Below are positions 53,715 through 64,000 of a stretch of 64,000 nt of DNA, piece by piece. Source of the DNA: Eledone cirrhosa (Eukaryota); the NCBI GenBank assembly GCA_964016885.1, contig OZ024757.1, forward strand, positions 3,968,001-4,032,000. The letters are read 5' to 3'. The position numbers and the translations under genes were made by a program. Each line of letters starts with the position of its first letter. The stretch's first letter is position 1. Below the pieces are notes generated by a model. The model saw only the letters and a program-made list of their open reading frames with translations, ran no database searches and was not told where the DNA came from.

Positions 53715-53835
53715 ATATTTAATGTAGAAAGGCTTCTACAGGACTAGAACTGTTTCATTCCGGAGAAATCATTAGAATGCCCCTGATGATTCTCCGAGAT
53801 GAAACAGTTCTAGTCCTGTAGAAGCCTTTCTACAT

Positions 53836-53842
<7 letters not shown>
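53715..53842. repeat. Fold-back element: 44-bp perfect inverted arms around head-to-head hammerhead-like cores
   Basis: 53715-53758 is the reverse complement of 53799-53842. The + arm reads CTGATGA(53783)-ttctccgagat-GAAA-CAG-ttctagtc-CTG-TA; the - arm has CTAATGA. Confidence 0.8.
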
Positions 53843-53934: not shown

Positions 53935-54852
53935 ATATCACGATAAATTAACTGACCCATAGACTCTCGCTATTCCCTGTCAGTAATGTGTTGAAAGGAG
54001 AAGGAATCCTGAGCTCTTTAAAATATATGTTGAAAAGGTAACACACTAGAGAGAGATAGTGCACCATCAATAACACAGGGAAAAACCACCAGTGTATGGA
54101 ATCTAACCTATGAAAGGCAGAGTAGACACACGGTAATTAAAAATGTAAATTCAAGTGTATATACAAACCTCTATAACTATATAACACACACGTACAAATC
54201 CAAAGAGATCTGTTTCGCCAATAATTTGTTGACAGAAATAAATAGCCCATGGTTCATCAACTATACATTTCAGACAACTCTAAGAGAATTTAAAGCGACT
54301 GTCCAGCTACACGTGGGAGAGACAAGTCACGGCGTGTTTAGGGCAGGGAACCAGTGGTGTCTGAGGGACGAGCTGCTAGAAAGAGCAGCCCAAAACCACT
54401 CAGAGGAGTGTTCTCAACCACACAGAAAGAGAGGAAAGACTGTTATAAGGAGCGAAATATCACGATATATAACGGAGCCATAGACTCTCGCTATTCCCTG
54501 TCAATAATGTGCTCAAAGGAGAAGAAATCCTGAGCTCTTTAAAATACAATATGTTGAAAAGGTAACACACTAGAGAGATAGTGCGCCATCAATAAAACAG
54601 TGTATAGCCTTACACACGCTGATGAACCATGGGCTATTTATTTCTGTCAACAAATTATTGGCGAAACAGATCTTTTTGGATTTGTACGTGTGGTATATAG
54701 TTATAGAGGTTTGTATATACACTTTAATTTATATTTTTAATTACCGTGTGTCTACTCTGCCTTCCATAGGTTAGACTCCATATACTGGTGGTTTTTCCCT
54801 GTTTTATTGATGGCGCACTGTATCTCTCTCTAGTGTGTTACCTTTTCAACAT

Positions 54853-54954: not shown

Positions 54955-55303
54955 TATGCAAAAAATACGGATATACAGAAATAGATAGATGGAGGCGAGT
55001 GGTATTTCCGGATGGTTCCTGAAACTGTAGAGCGTGGGGTAAGGGGGTGGGGTAAGAGGGTTATAGGGTGCGTCTATGAGGAGAGGTGGCGAGAATACTA
55101 ATAAAAAGACAAAATGGAAGCAAAATAAAAAAAATTTTAATGAAGACAAAAATTAGTGGTAAGAAGAAGAGGAGGGGGAGTTGAAGTACTTAGAGGAATA
55201 TTCACTAAATGTTGTGGTGGTTTGATGGAGTTGCGTGTGTCTGTATATAGTATTTCTTGGGTCTGTATATACTTCTAGTAAATAAAATCAGTTTAATGTT
55301 TCT

Positions 55304-55780
55304 GAGGAGAGGTTAAAACAACTGAAACTCTACTCCTTGCAACGAAAGCAGGAGAAATACGCAGTTATATACATATGAAAGATCCTGGAGGGAATAGCAC
55401 CAAACTTTGGCATTGGGAGTTCGACCAACCTCGAACAGGACGTCACTCTGTGGTGCCAAAAGTTCCTGTCTTTCACATCTAGAATAAGGAGCAGATATTG
55501 TAATATCCTGGGGTTCAAAAGCCCTCAACTCTTCAAGAATGCCAAGAAATTTGAGAGATCTGCATGATGTAGACGTGGATGTTTTCAAGGAACATCTTGA
55601 CACTCTGCTATCCAGGATCCAAGATGACCCCCACAACACGGTACGAAGGTAACGTAAGGGCAGCAACAAAGAACTCCCACTTACGCCAATAGCCAGCCAA
55701 CACGGACTGGATATAGCAAGTGAAGCAAAAAGAGCGGTGCCCTAACATGGGCTCAGCCGGATGGCTGGAACAGGTAAAAG
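55304..55780 (+). mobile_element. 5'-truncated, decayed LINE (CR1-like) ORF2 C-terminus and 3' UTR
   Basis: Manual translation across stops and frameshifts: EERLKQLKLYSLQRKQEKYAVIYI*KILEGIAPNFGI...RTGRH...PQLF...PRNLRDLHDVDVDVFKEHLDTLLSRIQDDP. This matches the RLxxLxLYSLxRRRxR...FKxxLD pattern of CR1-group ORF2 ends. Confidence 0.8.
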
Positions 55781-56773: not shown

Positions 56774-58240
56774 TCAAATTGGTTTGAAATTAGCGAATTT
56801 AGTAGCTGCTTTATGCCTACAGAAAATTGACCGTTCAATTTTGCTGTTAAGCAGCATTTTGTCATATTTTAAAATATGAAGCAACTCCATATTGCGAAGT
56901 CCGCAGTGGAACATTCCATTTCTGTAGGCCTTTGTCCATGACAGTTTCGACCAGCTAATCAACTATTCTTGGTTTGTATCTTTAAGCTGCGAGATTTTAT
57001 TGGCGAGCGTTGTTGTGCTCATTAGTTTACGGTTCTTTATAGAGTGGCTGTGGACGTACCATCTTTTTTAACTCCCCCGCCGTAGAACCTATGTAGTGCC
57101 ATGCTAAGTTGCCTGAATTTATAGTACACAGGTACACTATATTTGACTCCAGGCAACTATTTTGTAGTGGGCACTTATCCGGTAAGTGCCAGTTACATTT
57201 TTAGGCTTTCCTGTGTGCCGGTTCAACGATGCGGTTTTGTATGGGCTGAGATTTAGGTTTATTGATGTTTTGTTGTGATGCGTTTTGACGTGTGTGTGGT
57301 TGTGATGTTGTTATGTGTTTGTGATTTATATTTGGTGTTATGGTGTTTGTTTGTAGGTTATTTTCATTAGAGATTCTTTTATAGTTAATGTTATGTATGT
57401 GTGATTCTATGTTGGTTGCAGTAGAGTAAGATAGTTTGATAGTATTTCTATTAAACATTTTATGGTTTTTGTGAAGTTTAGGGAACTGCTTGTCAATTAA
57501 TTTAAAGAATGTAGAAGGTAGTTTGGTTTTTATAGAGGAGTTATATATTGGATTGAACCATAAGTATATCCTATCTCTGGATTTTCTATAGTTCCTAGGG
57601 GTCCTTATATTAATATTCGGTTCATTTATTTCTGGTGTTCGTTGTCTATTTCTATGTTTAGTCTTATATTTGTTATTTCTATAGGTGTGGCTGGTGTTAT
57701 TGCTGTTAAGTGTGTGTTGTTTTTTGTATCTGGTATGTTTTGAGCCTCTCTTTGTGGTCTGCCTTAAGTAAAGTTATGTTGTAGTAGTTAGCGTGTTCAT
57801 TAAAAATCTCTAGGTTAGAAGTTAAGCGTGAAATTCTAAGGGATATACTACGTGCTATGGAGTTAATTATGGAGCGAGGGTGGTTTAAGTTGTAACTAAT
57901 GTAGGCTAGATTTTCGTTATTTTTATGGAAGGGCTCTATTAGTCCTATGATACATCCAAGAAGTTAGCTTTTTTAGAGTTGAGTTCGAAAGTGATGCTTA
58001 GGCCTAGTTTATTGAAGAAGGTTCTAACCTTTTTACGTAATCTTTCTAAGTTTTGATTATTTAAGTTTTTAGCTAAAAGTAAGTAGTGTATCGTCTCTAT
58101 AAATTCCTCCCTGGAGGTTATCTAATTCCCTATGTAAGATATGTGCTATATTATTCCAACTATGCCGGTTACTTGAGCTGAGTCGTTAGATCCCATACTG
58201 ATATTAAAGTTATTCTGTCTGTTTTTTTTCTTTCCCAGTA
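56774..58240 (-). pseudogene. Penelope-like reverse transcriptase / GIY-YIG endonuclease ORF, disrupted by stops and frameshifts
   Basis: Manual translation gives FNISMGSNDSAQV, GIYRDD (YRDD at 58090-58101), GLSITFELNSKKANFLDV, NHPRSII, WFNPIY, FNRNTIKLSYS, CNWxxxxxCPLQNSCLESNIVY, YIGST and LLNSKIE...CRH. It includes the track ORFs 57201-57458 and 56774-56962. Confidence 0.92.
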
Positions 58241-59217: not shown

Positions 59218-59479
59218 TGTAATCTTTCTTTTTTCGGTTGGTGTAGGACACAACAAAAGAGAGACACAAAATAGAAACCTAGTCGCTGAGGAGGTCTCAA
59301 CAGTGTGACGAAAGAGCGTAGACAATATATAAACAACCTTTCGGTTATCGAACCAACCACGTAACTGGAAATTTATAATAAATTGAAGTGAAAACCCTCC
59401 CAAAGTATAGCTATATCTGTTTCAACCCACGGTTTCAGATAAGAAATCTTGCAAAACAAATTAAAAAACGATATATATA

Positions 59480-60093
59480 TATATCATAAAACTTGTCTAT
59501 AGAATCACCAGATAAAATATATATCGTTTCCTCTCCCAATTAGCATAATTAACCATATAAAAAATCAATTAGACGAAGCTATAAGAATAAAGGCTCCTAT
59601 GAAGAAATCTCCGACAAATAACCGAAAGCAGCCCTTCGCGGCTGTTGCGACGGAGTATTTATCGAGTATTTCGACAGCGTGTATAAATCGACCAGATATA
59701 CAGTCAACTAAACAGAATTAGGTGTAAAATAAACTAGGAGAAAAGTGAACATATTTAGTTAACTCTACCATGGTTTCGTCCGCATTTTAAGATATCCGAT
59801 AACATTGGAAATCTGGAGCACCGGACTCTTCAGCAGTTAGCTCAAATTTAGACAATTAATTTTCCAAAGTGATCGCGCCAAGAATACATAGGTTGAGATA
59901 CAATTTTGGCTGTATTGGGCTGCGCTTTCTAGCAAAAGGCGACCAACCGTAAGCAACTAATCACATTCTTTCTAACTTGACCGCTGTCACGTCACGATTC
60001 TGAGCCATTTTTCAATGTATTCTTGGCGCAATCACTTTGGAAAATTAATTGTCTAAATTTGAGCTAACTCCTGAAGAGTCCGGTGCTCCAGAT
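59480..60093. mobile_element. Diverged relative of the 664-bp unit, in an inverted (about 59480-59889) plus forward (59890-60093) arrangement
   Basis: The reverse complement aligns by eye to the array unit (e.g. ttatttgtcggagattt, gaaaccatggtagag). A 79-bp inverted repeat lies at 59811-59889 / 60015-60093. Confidence 0.85.
59760..59839 (-). ncRNA. Type I hammerhead ribozyme, diverged homolog of the array HHR
   Basis: The - strand reads TAACTg-CTGAAGA-GTCCG...AGATTTCC-loop-GGATATCT...CGGAC-GAAAC-CATG-GTA-GAGTTA, with a canonical G10.1-C11.1 pair. Confidence 0.85.
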
Positions 60094-60440
60094 ATACATA
60101 TATTTTATTATCTGATGATTCTAAAGACATGATTTATGATATAATGCTCTGATTTGTTAATTTATTAATTCTTCATAGAGCTTAAAAGTGACCAGTTGCA
60201 ACATGTATATATCTATAACTTTATGTATATGTTAACCTTTATATTTAATAATCTCCCAATAGGTTGAGATTAAATTTGGCGATATTTGGCTGCGCTTTCT
60301 AGCAGCAAGCCTACCTGCCGTAAGCAACCAATCACATCCTTTCTCTATGCCTTGTCCACAGCCACATAGCGTATCTTAGCCATTTTTGAATTTATTTTTG
60401 GCAGGATCGGATTGAAAAACTAGATGTCTGATTTTGAGTT

Positions 60441-60518
60441 TGTCTCCTGATGAATCCTAACTCAGGACATTCCTATTATTTGGATGTCTAAAATATGGAA
60501 GAAACCATGGTAGAGATA
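60441..60518 (+). ncRNA. Type I hammerhead ribozyme, array unit 1 (predicted cleavage after 60512)
   Basis: TGTCTC-CTGATGA-aTCC...GGACATTC/GGATGTCT...GGAa-GAAAC-CATG-GTA-GAGATA. Confidence 0.78.
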
Positions 60519-61104
60519 TAATTACGGTATGTGCGCATTTCTTCTAAGTTAAATTTTACACATAATTGTGTATGGCTGATAGTATATTTAGTCAGTTTCT
60601 ACATGCTGTCGAAATGTTGGATAAATACTCGAGTTAGGCCGCCGCGAAGAGGCTACGTTCGGTTATTTGTCGGAGATTTCCCCATAAGAGCATTTATACT
60701 TATAGCTTGTTCTGATTGATTTTTTATATGGTTAGTTGTGCTAATTAGAAGAAGAAATAGTATATATTTTATTATCTGATGATTCTAAAGACATGATTTA
60801 TGATATAATGCTCTGATTTTTTAATTTATTAATTCAACATAGAGCTTAAAAGTGACTAGTTGCAACATGTATATATCTATACCTTTATGTATATGTTAAC
60901 CTTTATATTTAATAATCTCCCAATAGGTTGAGATTAAATCTGGCGATATTTGGCTGCGCTTTCTAGCAGCAAGCCTACCCGCCGTAAGCAACCAATCACA
61001 TCCTTTCTCTCTGCCTTGTCCACAGCCACATAGCGTATCTTAGCCATTTTTGAATTTATTTTTGGCAGGATCGGATTGAAAAACTAGATGTCTGATTTTG
61101 AGTT

Positions 61105-61182
61105 TGTCTCCTGATGAATCCTAACTCAGGACATTCCTATTATTTGGATGTCTAAAATAAGGAAGAAACCATGGTAGAGATA
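61105..61182 (+). ncRNA. Type I hammerhead ribozyme, array unit 2 (cleavage after 61176)
   Basis: Same fold, with stem II TCCT/AGGA. Confidence 0.8.
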
Positions 61183-61768
61183 TAATTACGGTTTGTGCGC
61201 ATTTCTTCTAAGTTAAATTTTACACCTAATTGTGTATGGCTGATGGTATATTTAGTCAGTTTCTACATGCTGTCGAAATGTTGGATAAATACTCGAGTGA
61301 GGCCGCCGCGAAGAGGCTACGTTCGGTTATTTGTCGGAGATTTCCCCATAAGAGCATTTATTCTTATAGCTTGTTCTGATTGATTTTTTATGTGGTTAGT
61401 TATGCTAATTAGAAGAAGAAATAGTATATATTTTATTATCTGATGATTCTAAAGACATGATTTATGATATAATGCTCTGATTTGTTAATTTATTAATTCT
61501 TCATAGAGCTTAAAAGTGACCAGTTGCAACATGTATATATCTATAACTTTATGTATATGTTAACCTTTATATTTAATAATCTCCCAATAGGTTGAGATTA
61601 AATTTGGCGATATTTGGCTGCGCTTTCTAGCAGCAAGCCTACCCGCCGTAAGCAACCAATCACATCCTTTCTCTCTGCCTTGTCCACAGCCACATAGCGT
61701 ATCTTAGCCATTTTTGAATTTATTTTTGGCAGGATCGGATTGAAAAACTAGATGTCTGATTTTGAGTT

Positions 61769-61846
61769 TGTCTCCTGATGAATCCTAACTCAGGACATTC
61801 CTATTATTTGGATGTCTAAAATAAGGAAGAAACCATGGTAGAGATA
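61769..61846 (+). ncRNA. Type I hammerhead ribozyme, array unit 3 (cleavage after 61840)
   Basis: Same as unit 2. Confidence 0.8.
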
Positions 61847-62432
61847 TAATTACGGTTTGTGCGCATTTCTTCTAAGTTAAATTTTACACCTAATTGTGTA
61901 TGGCTGATGGTATATTTAGTCAGTTTCTACATGCTGTCGAAATGTTGGATAAATACTCGAGTGAGGCCGCCGCGAAGAGGCTACGTTCGGTTATTTGTCG
62001 GAGATTTCCCCATAAGAGCATTTATTCTTATAGCTTGTTCTGATTGATTTTTTATGTGGTTAGTTATGCTAATTAGAAGAAGAAATAGTATATATTTTAT
62101 TATCTGATGATTCTAAAGACATGATTTATGATATAATGCTCTGATTTGTTAATTTATTAATTCTTCATAGAGCTTAAAAGTGACCAGTTGCAACATGTAT
62201 ATATCTATAACTTTATGTATATGTTAACCTTTATATTTAATAATCTCCCAATAGGTTGAGATTAAATTTGGCGATATTTGGCTGCGCTTTCTAGCAGCAA
62301 GCCTACCCGCCGTAAGCAACCAATCACATCCTTTCTCTCTGCCTTGTCCACAGCCACATAGCGTATCTTAGCCATTTTTGAATTTATTTTTGGCAGGATC
62401 GGATTGAAAAACTAGATGTCTGATTTTGAGTT

Positions 62433-62510
62433 TGTCTCCTGATGAATCCTAACTCAGGACATTCCTATTATTTGGATGTCTAAAATAAGGAAGAAACCAT
62501 GGTAGAGATA
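62433..62510 (+). ncRNA. Type I hammerhead ribozyme, array unit 4 (cleavage after 62504)
   Basis: Same as unit 2. Confidence 0.8.
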
Positions 62511-63096
62511 TAATTACGGTTTGTGCGCATTTCTTCTAAGTTAAATTTTACACCTAATTGTGTATGGCTGATGGTATATTTAGTCAGTTTCTACATGCTG
62601 TCGAAATGTTGGATAAATACTCGAGTGAGGCCGCCGCGAAGAGGCTACGTTCGGTTATTTGTCGGAGATTTCCCCATAAGAGCATTTATTCTTATAGCTT
62701 GTTCTGATTGATTTTTTATGTGGTTAGTTATGCTAATTAGAAGAAGAAATAGTATATATTTTATTATCTGATGATTCTAAAGACATGATTTATGATATAA
62801 TGCTCTGATTTGTTAATTTATTAATTCTTCATAGAGCTTAAAAGTGACCAGTTGCAACATGTATATATCTATAACTTTATGTATATGTTAACCTTTATAT
62901 TTAATAATCTCCCAATAGGTTGAGATTAAATTTGGCGATATTTGGCTGCGCTTTCTAGCAGCAAGCCTACCCGCCGTAAGCAACCAATCACATCCTTTCT
63001 CTCTGCCTTGTCCACAGCCACATAGCGTATCTTAGCCATTTTTGAATTTATTTTTGGCAGGATCGGATTGAAAAACTAGATGTCTGATTTTGAGTT

Positions 63097-63174
63097 TGTC
63101 TCCTGATGAATCCTAACTCAGGACATTCCTATTATTTGGATGTCTAAAATAAGGAAGAAACCATGGTAGAGATA
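63097..63174 (+). ncRNA. Type I hammerhead ribozyme, array unit 5 (cleavage after 63168)
   Basis: Same as unit 2. Confidence 0.8.
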
Positions 63175-63760
63175 TAATTACGGTTTGTGCGCATTTCTTC
63201 TAAGTTAAATTTTACACCTAATTGTGTATGGCTGATGGTATATTTAGTCAGTTTCTACATGCTGTCGAAATGTTGGATAAATACTCGAGTGAGGCCGCCG
63301 CGAAGAGGCTACGTTCGGTTATTTGTCGGAGATTTCCCCATAAGAGCATTTATTCTTATAGCTTGTTCTGATTGATTTTTTATGTGGTTAGTTATGCTAA
63401 TTAGAAGAAGAAATAGTATATATTTTATTATCTGATGATTCTAAAGACATGATTTATGATATAATGCTCTGATTTGTTAATTTATTAATTCTTCATAGAG
63501 CTTAAAAGTGACCAGTTGCAACATGTATATATCTATAACTTTATGTATATGTTAACCTTTATATTTAATAATCTCCCAATAGGTTGAGATTAAATTTGGC
63601 GATATTTGGCTGCGCTTTCTAGCAGCAAGCCTACCCGCCGTAAGCAACCAATCACATCCTTTCTCTCTGCCTTGTCCACAGCCACATAGCGTATCTTAGC
63701 CATTTTTGAATTTATTTTTGGCAGGATCGGATTGAAAAACTAGATGTCTGATTTTGAGTT

Positions 63761-63838
63761 TGTCTCCTGATGAATCCTAACTCAGGACATTCCTATTATT
63801 TGGATGTCTAAAATAAGGAAGAAACCATGGTAGAGATA
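63761..63838 (+). ncRNA. Type I hammerhead ribozyme, array unit 6 (cleavage after 63832)
   Basis: Same as unit 2. Confidence 0.8.
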
Positions 63839-64000
63839 TAATTACGGTTTGTGCGCATTTCTTCTAAGTTAAATTTTACACCTAATTGTGTATGGCTGAT
63901 GGTATATTTAGTCAGTTTCTACATGCTGTCGAAATGTTGGATAAATACTCGAGTGAGGCCGCCGCGAAGAGGCTACGTTCGGTTATTTGTCGGAGATTTC

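Follow-up and report, generated by a model that had tools for sequence, protein, structure and literature searches.

Newt satellite 2 and schistosome Sm-alpha are hammerhead satellites in which each unit carries one type I hammerhead. A cave cricket hammerhead repeat of ~500 bp has also been described (PMC2837043), and circles have been demonstrated for the retrozymes of coral, mussel and axolotl (PMC7229834). Retrozyme families are reported to span 51-972 bp, with a mean of 650 bp in ray-finned fish, and one of nine predicted retrozyme dimers is recorded as cleaved (bioRxiv 10.64898/2026.07.22.740005). Mobilisation of animal retrozymes by Penelope-like elements (PLEs) was proposed from co-occurrence and pLTR kinship, with the mechanism called open. 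PLE insertions are described as typically truncated at the 5′ end, accompanied by an inverted 5′ copy, tailed on one side and biased towards microsatellites (PMC8557442), the tail being the stretch between two internal reverse-transcription start sites (PMC11167929). In vitro, uncleaved RNA is described as the main PLE substrate, and insertion is unimpaired in hammerhead mutants (Frangieh et al. 2024, PMC11167929).

Here, we analysed a window of 64,000 nt (C18:3968001-4032000) from a 3.0-Gb genome, in which a 664-nt periodicity begins at 60098 and runs on the forward strand to 64000 and on to C18:4033290. The array thus extends only ~1.3 kb past the window, its last unit carrying an internal deletion before (TA)n follows. 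With unit position 1 set at 61177, the base following a predicted cut, the array is 5′-truncated at unit 250 and has its 3′ end at unit 295. Its period is beyond the reach of Tandem Repeats Finder, whose limit is 500. Six CUGAUGA...GAAA-CCAUGG-UA motifs start at 60447, 61111, 61775, 62439, 63103 and 63767, spaced by exactly 664 nt, and each contains the palindrome ACCATGGT (at 60504, 61168, 61832, 62496, 63160 and 63824); the whole array holds about eight motifs. With units counted from the core, 14 substitutions set the first apart from the next four, which are identical to one another. The unit has a G+C content of ~0.35, and the longest stop-free frame listed is 65 aa, occurring once per unit, which bears out the non-coding units of the preliminary description.

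The six motifs (60441-60518, 61105-61182, 61769-61846, 62433-62510, 63097-63174 and 63761-63838, all on the forward strand) have predicted cuts after 60512, 61176, 61840, 62504, 63168 and 63832, respectively, and the first has an extra stem II mismatch at 60496. In the second, the predicted fold comprises stem I (61105-61110 with 61177-61182; UGUCUC/GAGAUA), the CUGAUGA core (61111-61117), a 4-bp stem II (61119-61122 with 61160-61163) capped by an inner hairpin, GAAA at 61165-61168, a 2-bp stem III within the palindrome (61168-61175) and a GUA triplet at the cut. All six carry the elements of a type I core, that is C3-A9, G12-A14, A15.1-U16.1, an NUH triplet and stems I-III. The spacing and the palindromic stem III noted earlier were thus confirmed, and the cuts foreseen after 61176 and 61840 agree with the placement of the GUA. 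What had been overlooked is that the stem II pair adjacent to the core, 10.1/11.1, is an A·A mismatch (61118/61164) in all six; in addition, Rfam returned no hammerhead match at E values up to 1 or 10. A mismatch at 10.1/11.1 would be expected to slow cleavage, and efficient cleavage by the A·A lineage is therefore doubtful. The position is described as a highly conserved G-C pair (PMC4209133); our literature search, with most subscription papers outside its scope, found no data on A·A there. The mismatch lowers the status of the motif as a canonical hammerhead, not as one that works like a hammerhead. Palindromic stems III of this type are described as favouring dimer cleavage (PMC4209133), and the energies are consistent with the same earlier suggestion for this repeat: -11.2 kcal/mol for the 8-bp intermolecular duplex versus +2.9 for the monomer hairpin.

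Genome-wide, a 19-nt pattern for the 3′ core of the hammerhead finds 2,389 exact matches, and its reversed control none. When the structure was laid over 14 family members (a hand-picked set, with the structure taken from the window sequence and hence favoured), 91.7% of cells were paired and 12 double-sided changes were found; none of 500 shuffles scored as high, and slid controls reached 31-48%. The core is invariant and the stems covary across subfamilies up to ~25-30% divergent, with stem II alternating between G-C and A-U. At 10.1/11.1, a count of one motif per locus over 132 loci, with redundant loci removed and sampling biased towards the window's subfamily, gave 58 A·A, 40 A-U, 22 G-C and 12 others, and exact patterns genome-wide gave 141 A·A versus 1,292 purine/pyrimidine versions, many of these being A·C. 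On a midpoint-rooted tree, the A·A loci form a single group within A-U (support 0.25 for the exact node and 0.89 for the parent node of 62 tips). Some A·A tip lineages have lost further stem II pairs and are still found at several dispersed loci, and three of the further-eroded ones show a compensatory change in stem I. Thus, a derived A·A lineage lost a key stem II pair yet yielded many dispersed copies. Since tip lineages that erode stem II remain dispersed, the 10.1/11.1 pair appears to be loosely constrained for spread, and the core and stem I look retained. Two other ideas were rejected: an alternative stem II (UUCCU with AGGAA, with a hairpin inserted after A9) proved, when judged by eye, to be broken in the tip lineages, and A·A loci are derived without being clearly the youngest subfamily, arm divergence being alike in A·A and A-U loci.

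The 664-nt repeat is a dispersed, protein-free mobile family, with arrays as a secondary feature, and not mainly the satellite that it had been taken for. A search with the unit gave 108 scored matches on C1-C5, C7, C18 and C917, from the 28 of 4,154 candidates that were scored, and contigs from two sequencing runs of one sample contain many divergent copies. Most copies are dispersed and 5′-truncated and lie in (TA)n, which follows directly on unit 295 or ~399, so that the family has two fixed 3′ ends 104 nt apart. In the array, the main end (unit 295) corresponds to 61464-61471 and recurs every 664 nt, and the second (unit 396-399) to 61566-61575, both on the forward strand. Exact junctions to (TA)n numbered 345 for unit 295 and 77 for unit 396-399, with none in the controls. 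The copies are built as partial tandems in head-to-tail order and show no terminal repeats enclosing a distinct interior; dispersed insertions typically comprise 0.1-2 units and arrays are few. Roughly half of the arms measure less than 270 nt; among 222 arms, 53 are longer than one unit and three longer than two, the last figure being partly limited by the length of locus sequence taken.

The anatomy of these insertions was mapped at most of the first 100 of the 345 unit-295 junction loci and most of the 77 unit-399 junction loci, from which 155 unique events emerged; 81 of them are head-to-head insertions and 74 are single ones. Among the 81 inverted insertions, end 295 is paired with end 399 in 67 and the same end never occurs twice, the remaining 14 being cut off, degraded or mis-registered; (TA)n also ends the partner arm in 57 of the 67. 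Where at least 60 columns were shared (32 pairs), the two arms of an insertion differ by 1.8%, compared with 7.1% to other loci, and 31 of the 32 pairs lie below the others' median. The arms of one insertion thus probably derive from a single template or source, barring later gene conversion, which could explain part of the similarity. The family therefore combines 5′ truncation, an inverted 5′ copy, a one-sided tail and a microsatellite target. Our literature search, with most subscription papers outside its scope, turned up no account of retrozymes that insert into (TA)n with such a pairing of ends.

The array has a neighbour of this kind. An arm of a related subfamily, 70-80% identical, occupies 59480-59889 on the reverse strand; it carries a canonical G10.1-C11.1 hammerhead (core start 59833, predicted cut after 59766) and its end, at the counterpart of unit 295, lies in a short (TA)n stretch (59471-59479). 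The opposite arm of this head-to-head insertion (59888-60093, forward strand) breaks off within loop II of its hammerhead, at the point at which the 664-nt array starts. Taken together, the related element and the array would pair end 295 with end 295, in violation of the 295/399 rule, and the inverted element at 59480-60093 and the adjoining array are therefore likely to represent two separate, fused insertion events.

The genome is rich in intact PLE frames of two types, with open frames of up to 1,329 aa and ~713 aa, which we take to be Neptune-type and Hydra-type from their motifs and domain order. The ends of one type abut (TA)n, their offsets being 1-2, 43-46 and 60 (16 of 18 ends). The unit itself lacks a reading frame for reverse transcriptase and GIY-YIG, and we infer that the mobilising enzyme is a PLE. 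The earlier proposal of a retrozyme-like element spread by PLE enzymes thus gains good indirect evidence from the (TA)n targets and the paired 295/399 ends.

Taken together, these observations argue for the array being one insertion of a dispersed non-coding hammerhead element, likely copied in trans by a PLE reverse transcriptase/endonuclease, with the identical inner units likely arising from later DNA duplication; we put the probability of this reading at roughly 0.78. Counting against it, the search for an autonomous partner came back empty, both directly upstream of the unit at 274 loci and in the 3′ flanks of the two PLE families compared (the best 30 loci of each). Under such a scheme, the + strand of the 664-nt element would be transcribed, a PLE enzyme would nick the (TA)n target, and reverse transcription would begin within the RNA, one target strand being primed at 295 and the other at ~399, which would make 295 and 396-399 the putative start sites 1 and 2 and the stretch between them a tail of ~104 nt. 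The tandem hammerheads would be cut as dimers after GUA, weakly.

According to the strongest alternative, which is close to the preliminary description and which we consider unlikely, the array would be a source from which retrozymes arise efficiently: its transcripts would be cleaved into 664-nt monomers, which would then circularise and be reverse-transcribed by rolling circle, a process that would also build the array. The palindromic stem III and intact core would serve such a source, as would a highly paired unit (folded as a circle, it is predicted to do better than 25 shuffles, z -4.4), and circles are known for the coral, mussel and axolotl retrozymes (PMC7229834). The 53 of 222 arms that exceed one unit, most of them crossing the cut site, and the template variants common to units of one array could likewise be products of rolling circles. 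However, the mismatch stands where G-C is described as highly conserved (PMC4209133), stem II has eroded further in tip lineages that are still spreading, and hammerhead mutants are described as inserting unimpaired in vitro (PMC11167929). Read-through that efficiently yields monomers or circles, as first envisaged, is also hard to reconcile with the single cleaved dimer among nine predicted ones (bioRxiv 10.64898/2026.07.22.740005), and only three of 222 arms, a figure partly limited by the sequence length taken, exceed two units. The arrays themselves speak of expansion as DNA: a tree of 69 units groups them by locus, blocks of five and of six units are duplicated within a 30-kb array on C1, nested variants occur in an array on C4, and in the window the four identical units and the sixth have three variants in common that are absent from the first. 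Locus-wise clustering, nested variants and block duplications therefore point to arrays having expanded as DNA after insertion, rather than by one long rolling-circle product, and the identical inner units of the window could be an assembly artefact.

The 5′ ends of the arms provide a record of whether the templates had been cleaved: had cut RNA been copied, they would be expected to accumulate at unit position 1. Of the arms that reach the predicted cut site, 95 of 106 read through it. With 53 of 222 arms longer than a unit, most templates were therefore continuous over the cut site, either as circles or as uncleaved multimers, two forms that the genome cannot separate. For the A·A lineage, we regard mostly uncleaved multimeric RNA as fairly probable, because uncleaved RNA is the main substrate in vitro, one of nine dimers was cleaved and the mismatch is present; mostly re-ligated 664-nt circles are a less likely template, at clearly less than even odds. 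A minority of cleaved linear RNAs likely served as templates as well. Across 37 bins, the 5′-end rate of the inverted arms peaks in the 18-nt one at the cut site, with 10 events from 8 insertions against ~3 expected from an AT-content fit (P ~0.001 uncorrected, ~0.04 corrected for 37 bins, with bin edges set after viewing the data), and at two separate loci, L126 and L188, both arms stop there. Non-inverted copies have three 5′ ends at the cut site versus 1.2 expected, which is not significant (P 0.11). Stops at the cut site in A·A versus other lineages numbered 1 of 33 versus 5 of 31 in inverted arms and 4 of 57 versus 5 of 46 in all arms (P 0.51, no significant difference), using a classifier correct for 125 of 132 and a merging rule that left out L188. 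A further 5′-end hot zone at unit 200-265 is common to both arm types and would fit a transcription start site or the foot of a predicted 24-256 hairpin; as the ends gather at these unit positions and not at one arm length, a stall on completing one turn of a circle is not supported as its cause.

Another reading, which we hold to be very improbable, is that the copies are merely 5′-truncated pLTRs of an autonomous PLE, with no independent non-autonomous element. Their ends are structured like those of PLE insertions, roughly half of the arms fall short of 270 nt, and the two PLE families examined are probably two of many. Nevertheless, head-to-tail units without an intervening reading frame occur in both dispersed copies and arrays, and a PLE frame lies directly upstream of the unit at none of 274 loci, the one match, 634 nt away, being a separate insertion. 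The sole long insert within a unit, of 730 nt at L029, was considered as a remnant reading frame and proved to be unrelated DNA. A comparison of the unit with the 3′ flanks of both PLE families (the best 30 loci of each, and 620 nt of the second type, short of its end) revealed no similarity, 53 and 15 of 100 shuffles, respectively, scoring as high. A pattern for hammerheads that combine shorter stems with this palindrome matched at 40 places, and none of the 30 inspected had an adjoining PLE frame; Pfam gave no match in nine frames, PLE-like or other. Finally, an ordinary satellite with chance hammerhead-like words, in keeping with the lack of an Rfam match and with a 95-nt hammerhead region that folds no better than shuffles (z -0.16), is refuted to the point of a negligible likelihood by the invariant core and covarying stems across ~25-30% divergent subfamilies, together with thousands of dispersed copies with fixed ends.

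Returning to a dispersed element copied in trans, we tentatively propose, as a possibility with the odds against it, that the paired-stem-II lineages record reverse-transcriptase run-off at the ribozyme cut, and hence cleavage in vivo, that the stepwise-eroded A·A lineage still transposed, in which case spread would require neither cleavage nor circles, and that reverse transcription of one template began at two sites, 104 nt from each other and each serving one strand of the target. If true, the family would be a natural experiment on the role of the hammerhead in PLE-driven retrozymes. Its natural ribozyme variants differ at a single pair beside the core (G-C, A-U, A·C or A·A, besides more eroded forms) and come with countable transposition records and copy numbers. 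The counts of insertion anatomy support PLE mobilisation of animal retrozymes from another angle, and the family would also show arrays arising from single insertions.

Among the known systems, the hammerhead satellites, namely cave cricket pDo500 (PMC2837043), newt satellite 2 and schistosome Sm-alpha, are alike in their tandem units, each with a single type I hammerhead, in the dimer cleavage proposed for them and in compensatory changes at 10.1/11.1. Cleavage has been shown for these satellites, whereas that of the 664-nt family is predicted, and the family consists mostly of dispersed insertions. Endonuclease-positive PLE insertions (Craig et al. 2021, PMC8557442; Frangieh et al. 2024, PMC11167929) resemble those of the family in their 5′ truncation, partial tandems, inverted 5′ copy, one-end tail, microsatellite bias, terminal-repeat hammerhead and two inferred internal start sites. 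Unlike these PLEs, the 664-nt unit has no reading frame, and its tail is ~104 nt as opposed to 30-40 nt; in the work of Frangieh et al. no RNA reads ended at the cut, whereas some genomic 5′ ends of the 664-nt family lie there.

The closest resemblance is to animal non-LTR retrozymes, as these are portrayed by Cervera and de la Pena (2020, PMC7229834) and by Li, Clavereau and Pollet (2026, bioRxiv 10.64898/2026.07.22.740005). The 664-nt unit is longer than the experimentally tested circles of 170-400 nt; it differs also in its long branched stem II with A·A at 10.1/11.1, and in having its (TA)n target and two paired 3′ ends resolved. In Xenopus, a pLTR match to an autonomous PLE is given for 21 of 57 retrozyme families, whereas none was found for the 664-nt unit in the two PLE families compared. 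The features held in common are non-coding tandem units with one type I hammerhead each, a G+C content below 45%, a range from monomers to long arrays, co-existing PLEs and a length within 51-972 bp, so that a 664-nt monomer is not, as first supposed, unusually long. At the level of sequence, the family thus appears to be an animal non-LTR retrozyme and would work like these; it represents no new kind of system, but a new example of animal retrozymes.

A large array of the 664-nt family lies on another contig of the E. cirrhosa genome, C1 (G000:C1:92985600-93016036; loci L053, L054, L140 and L141), where about 45 units are organized into higher-order blocks and the array as a whole is bounded by one 399 arm and one 295 end, the arms being copies joined to (TA)n whose 3′ end is fixed at unit position ~399 or 295. 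Its hammerheads are of the A·A type, named after bases 10.1/11.1 closing stem II, many with additional stem II changes, and its inverted arm carries an A-U hammerhead.

Truncations at the 5′ side concentrate in a hot zone at unit positions 200-265 (window 61376-61441) that is common to both arm types and to both passes through the unit; transcription may start here, or the zone may mark the foot of a predicted long hairpin. Just past the window (L142:497-994), positions 348-510 are missing from one unit of the array, and the sequences on either side of the gap overlap by 3 nt where they join.

Stem II is mostly unpaired in one tip lineage (L113, L115, L132, L177 and their relatives), and in three of these four named loci a stem I pair has changed from U-A to C-G, a compensatory replacement. 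A second hammerhead family (L279, L293, L295, L303 and L046) has the same palindromic stem III as the 664-nt family, the remaining sequence being different, and some of its copies end in (TA)n. Two Penelope-like element (PLE) families with long open frames are highly abundant and young (L143-L172 and L305-L334); the former ends in (TA)n with offsets near 1, 46 and 60, and its 3′ flank holds a minimal hammerhead-like motif.

Within the window, positions 1-52705 are filled by a 23-bp satellite (~2,294 copies, 89% matches). Hammerhead-core-like words also occur at 53783, 54619 and 59286, inside short fold-back or PLE-end-like remnants adjoining (TA)n (within 53720-53838, 54041-54836 and 59280-59440), and a 149-nt inverted repeat of 91% identity lies at 54041/54836. 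The broken-up frames at 55300-55740 resemble the terminal part of a LINE-type element; a Pfam search of the one on the minus strand gave no match. A decayed, frameshifted PLE reverse transcriptase/endonuclease frame at 56780-58229 (minus strand), which shares 30-46% identity with the PLE frames of the other loci retrieved, has no relation to the 664-nt array; from its WFNP motif, we take it to be of the Hydra type.
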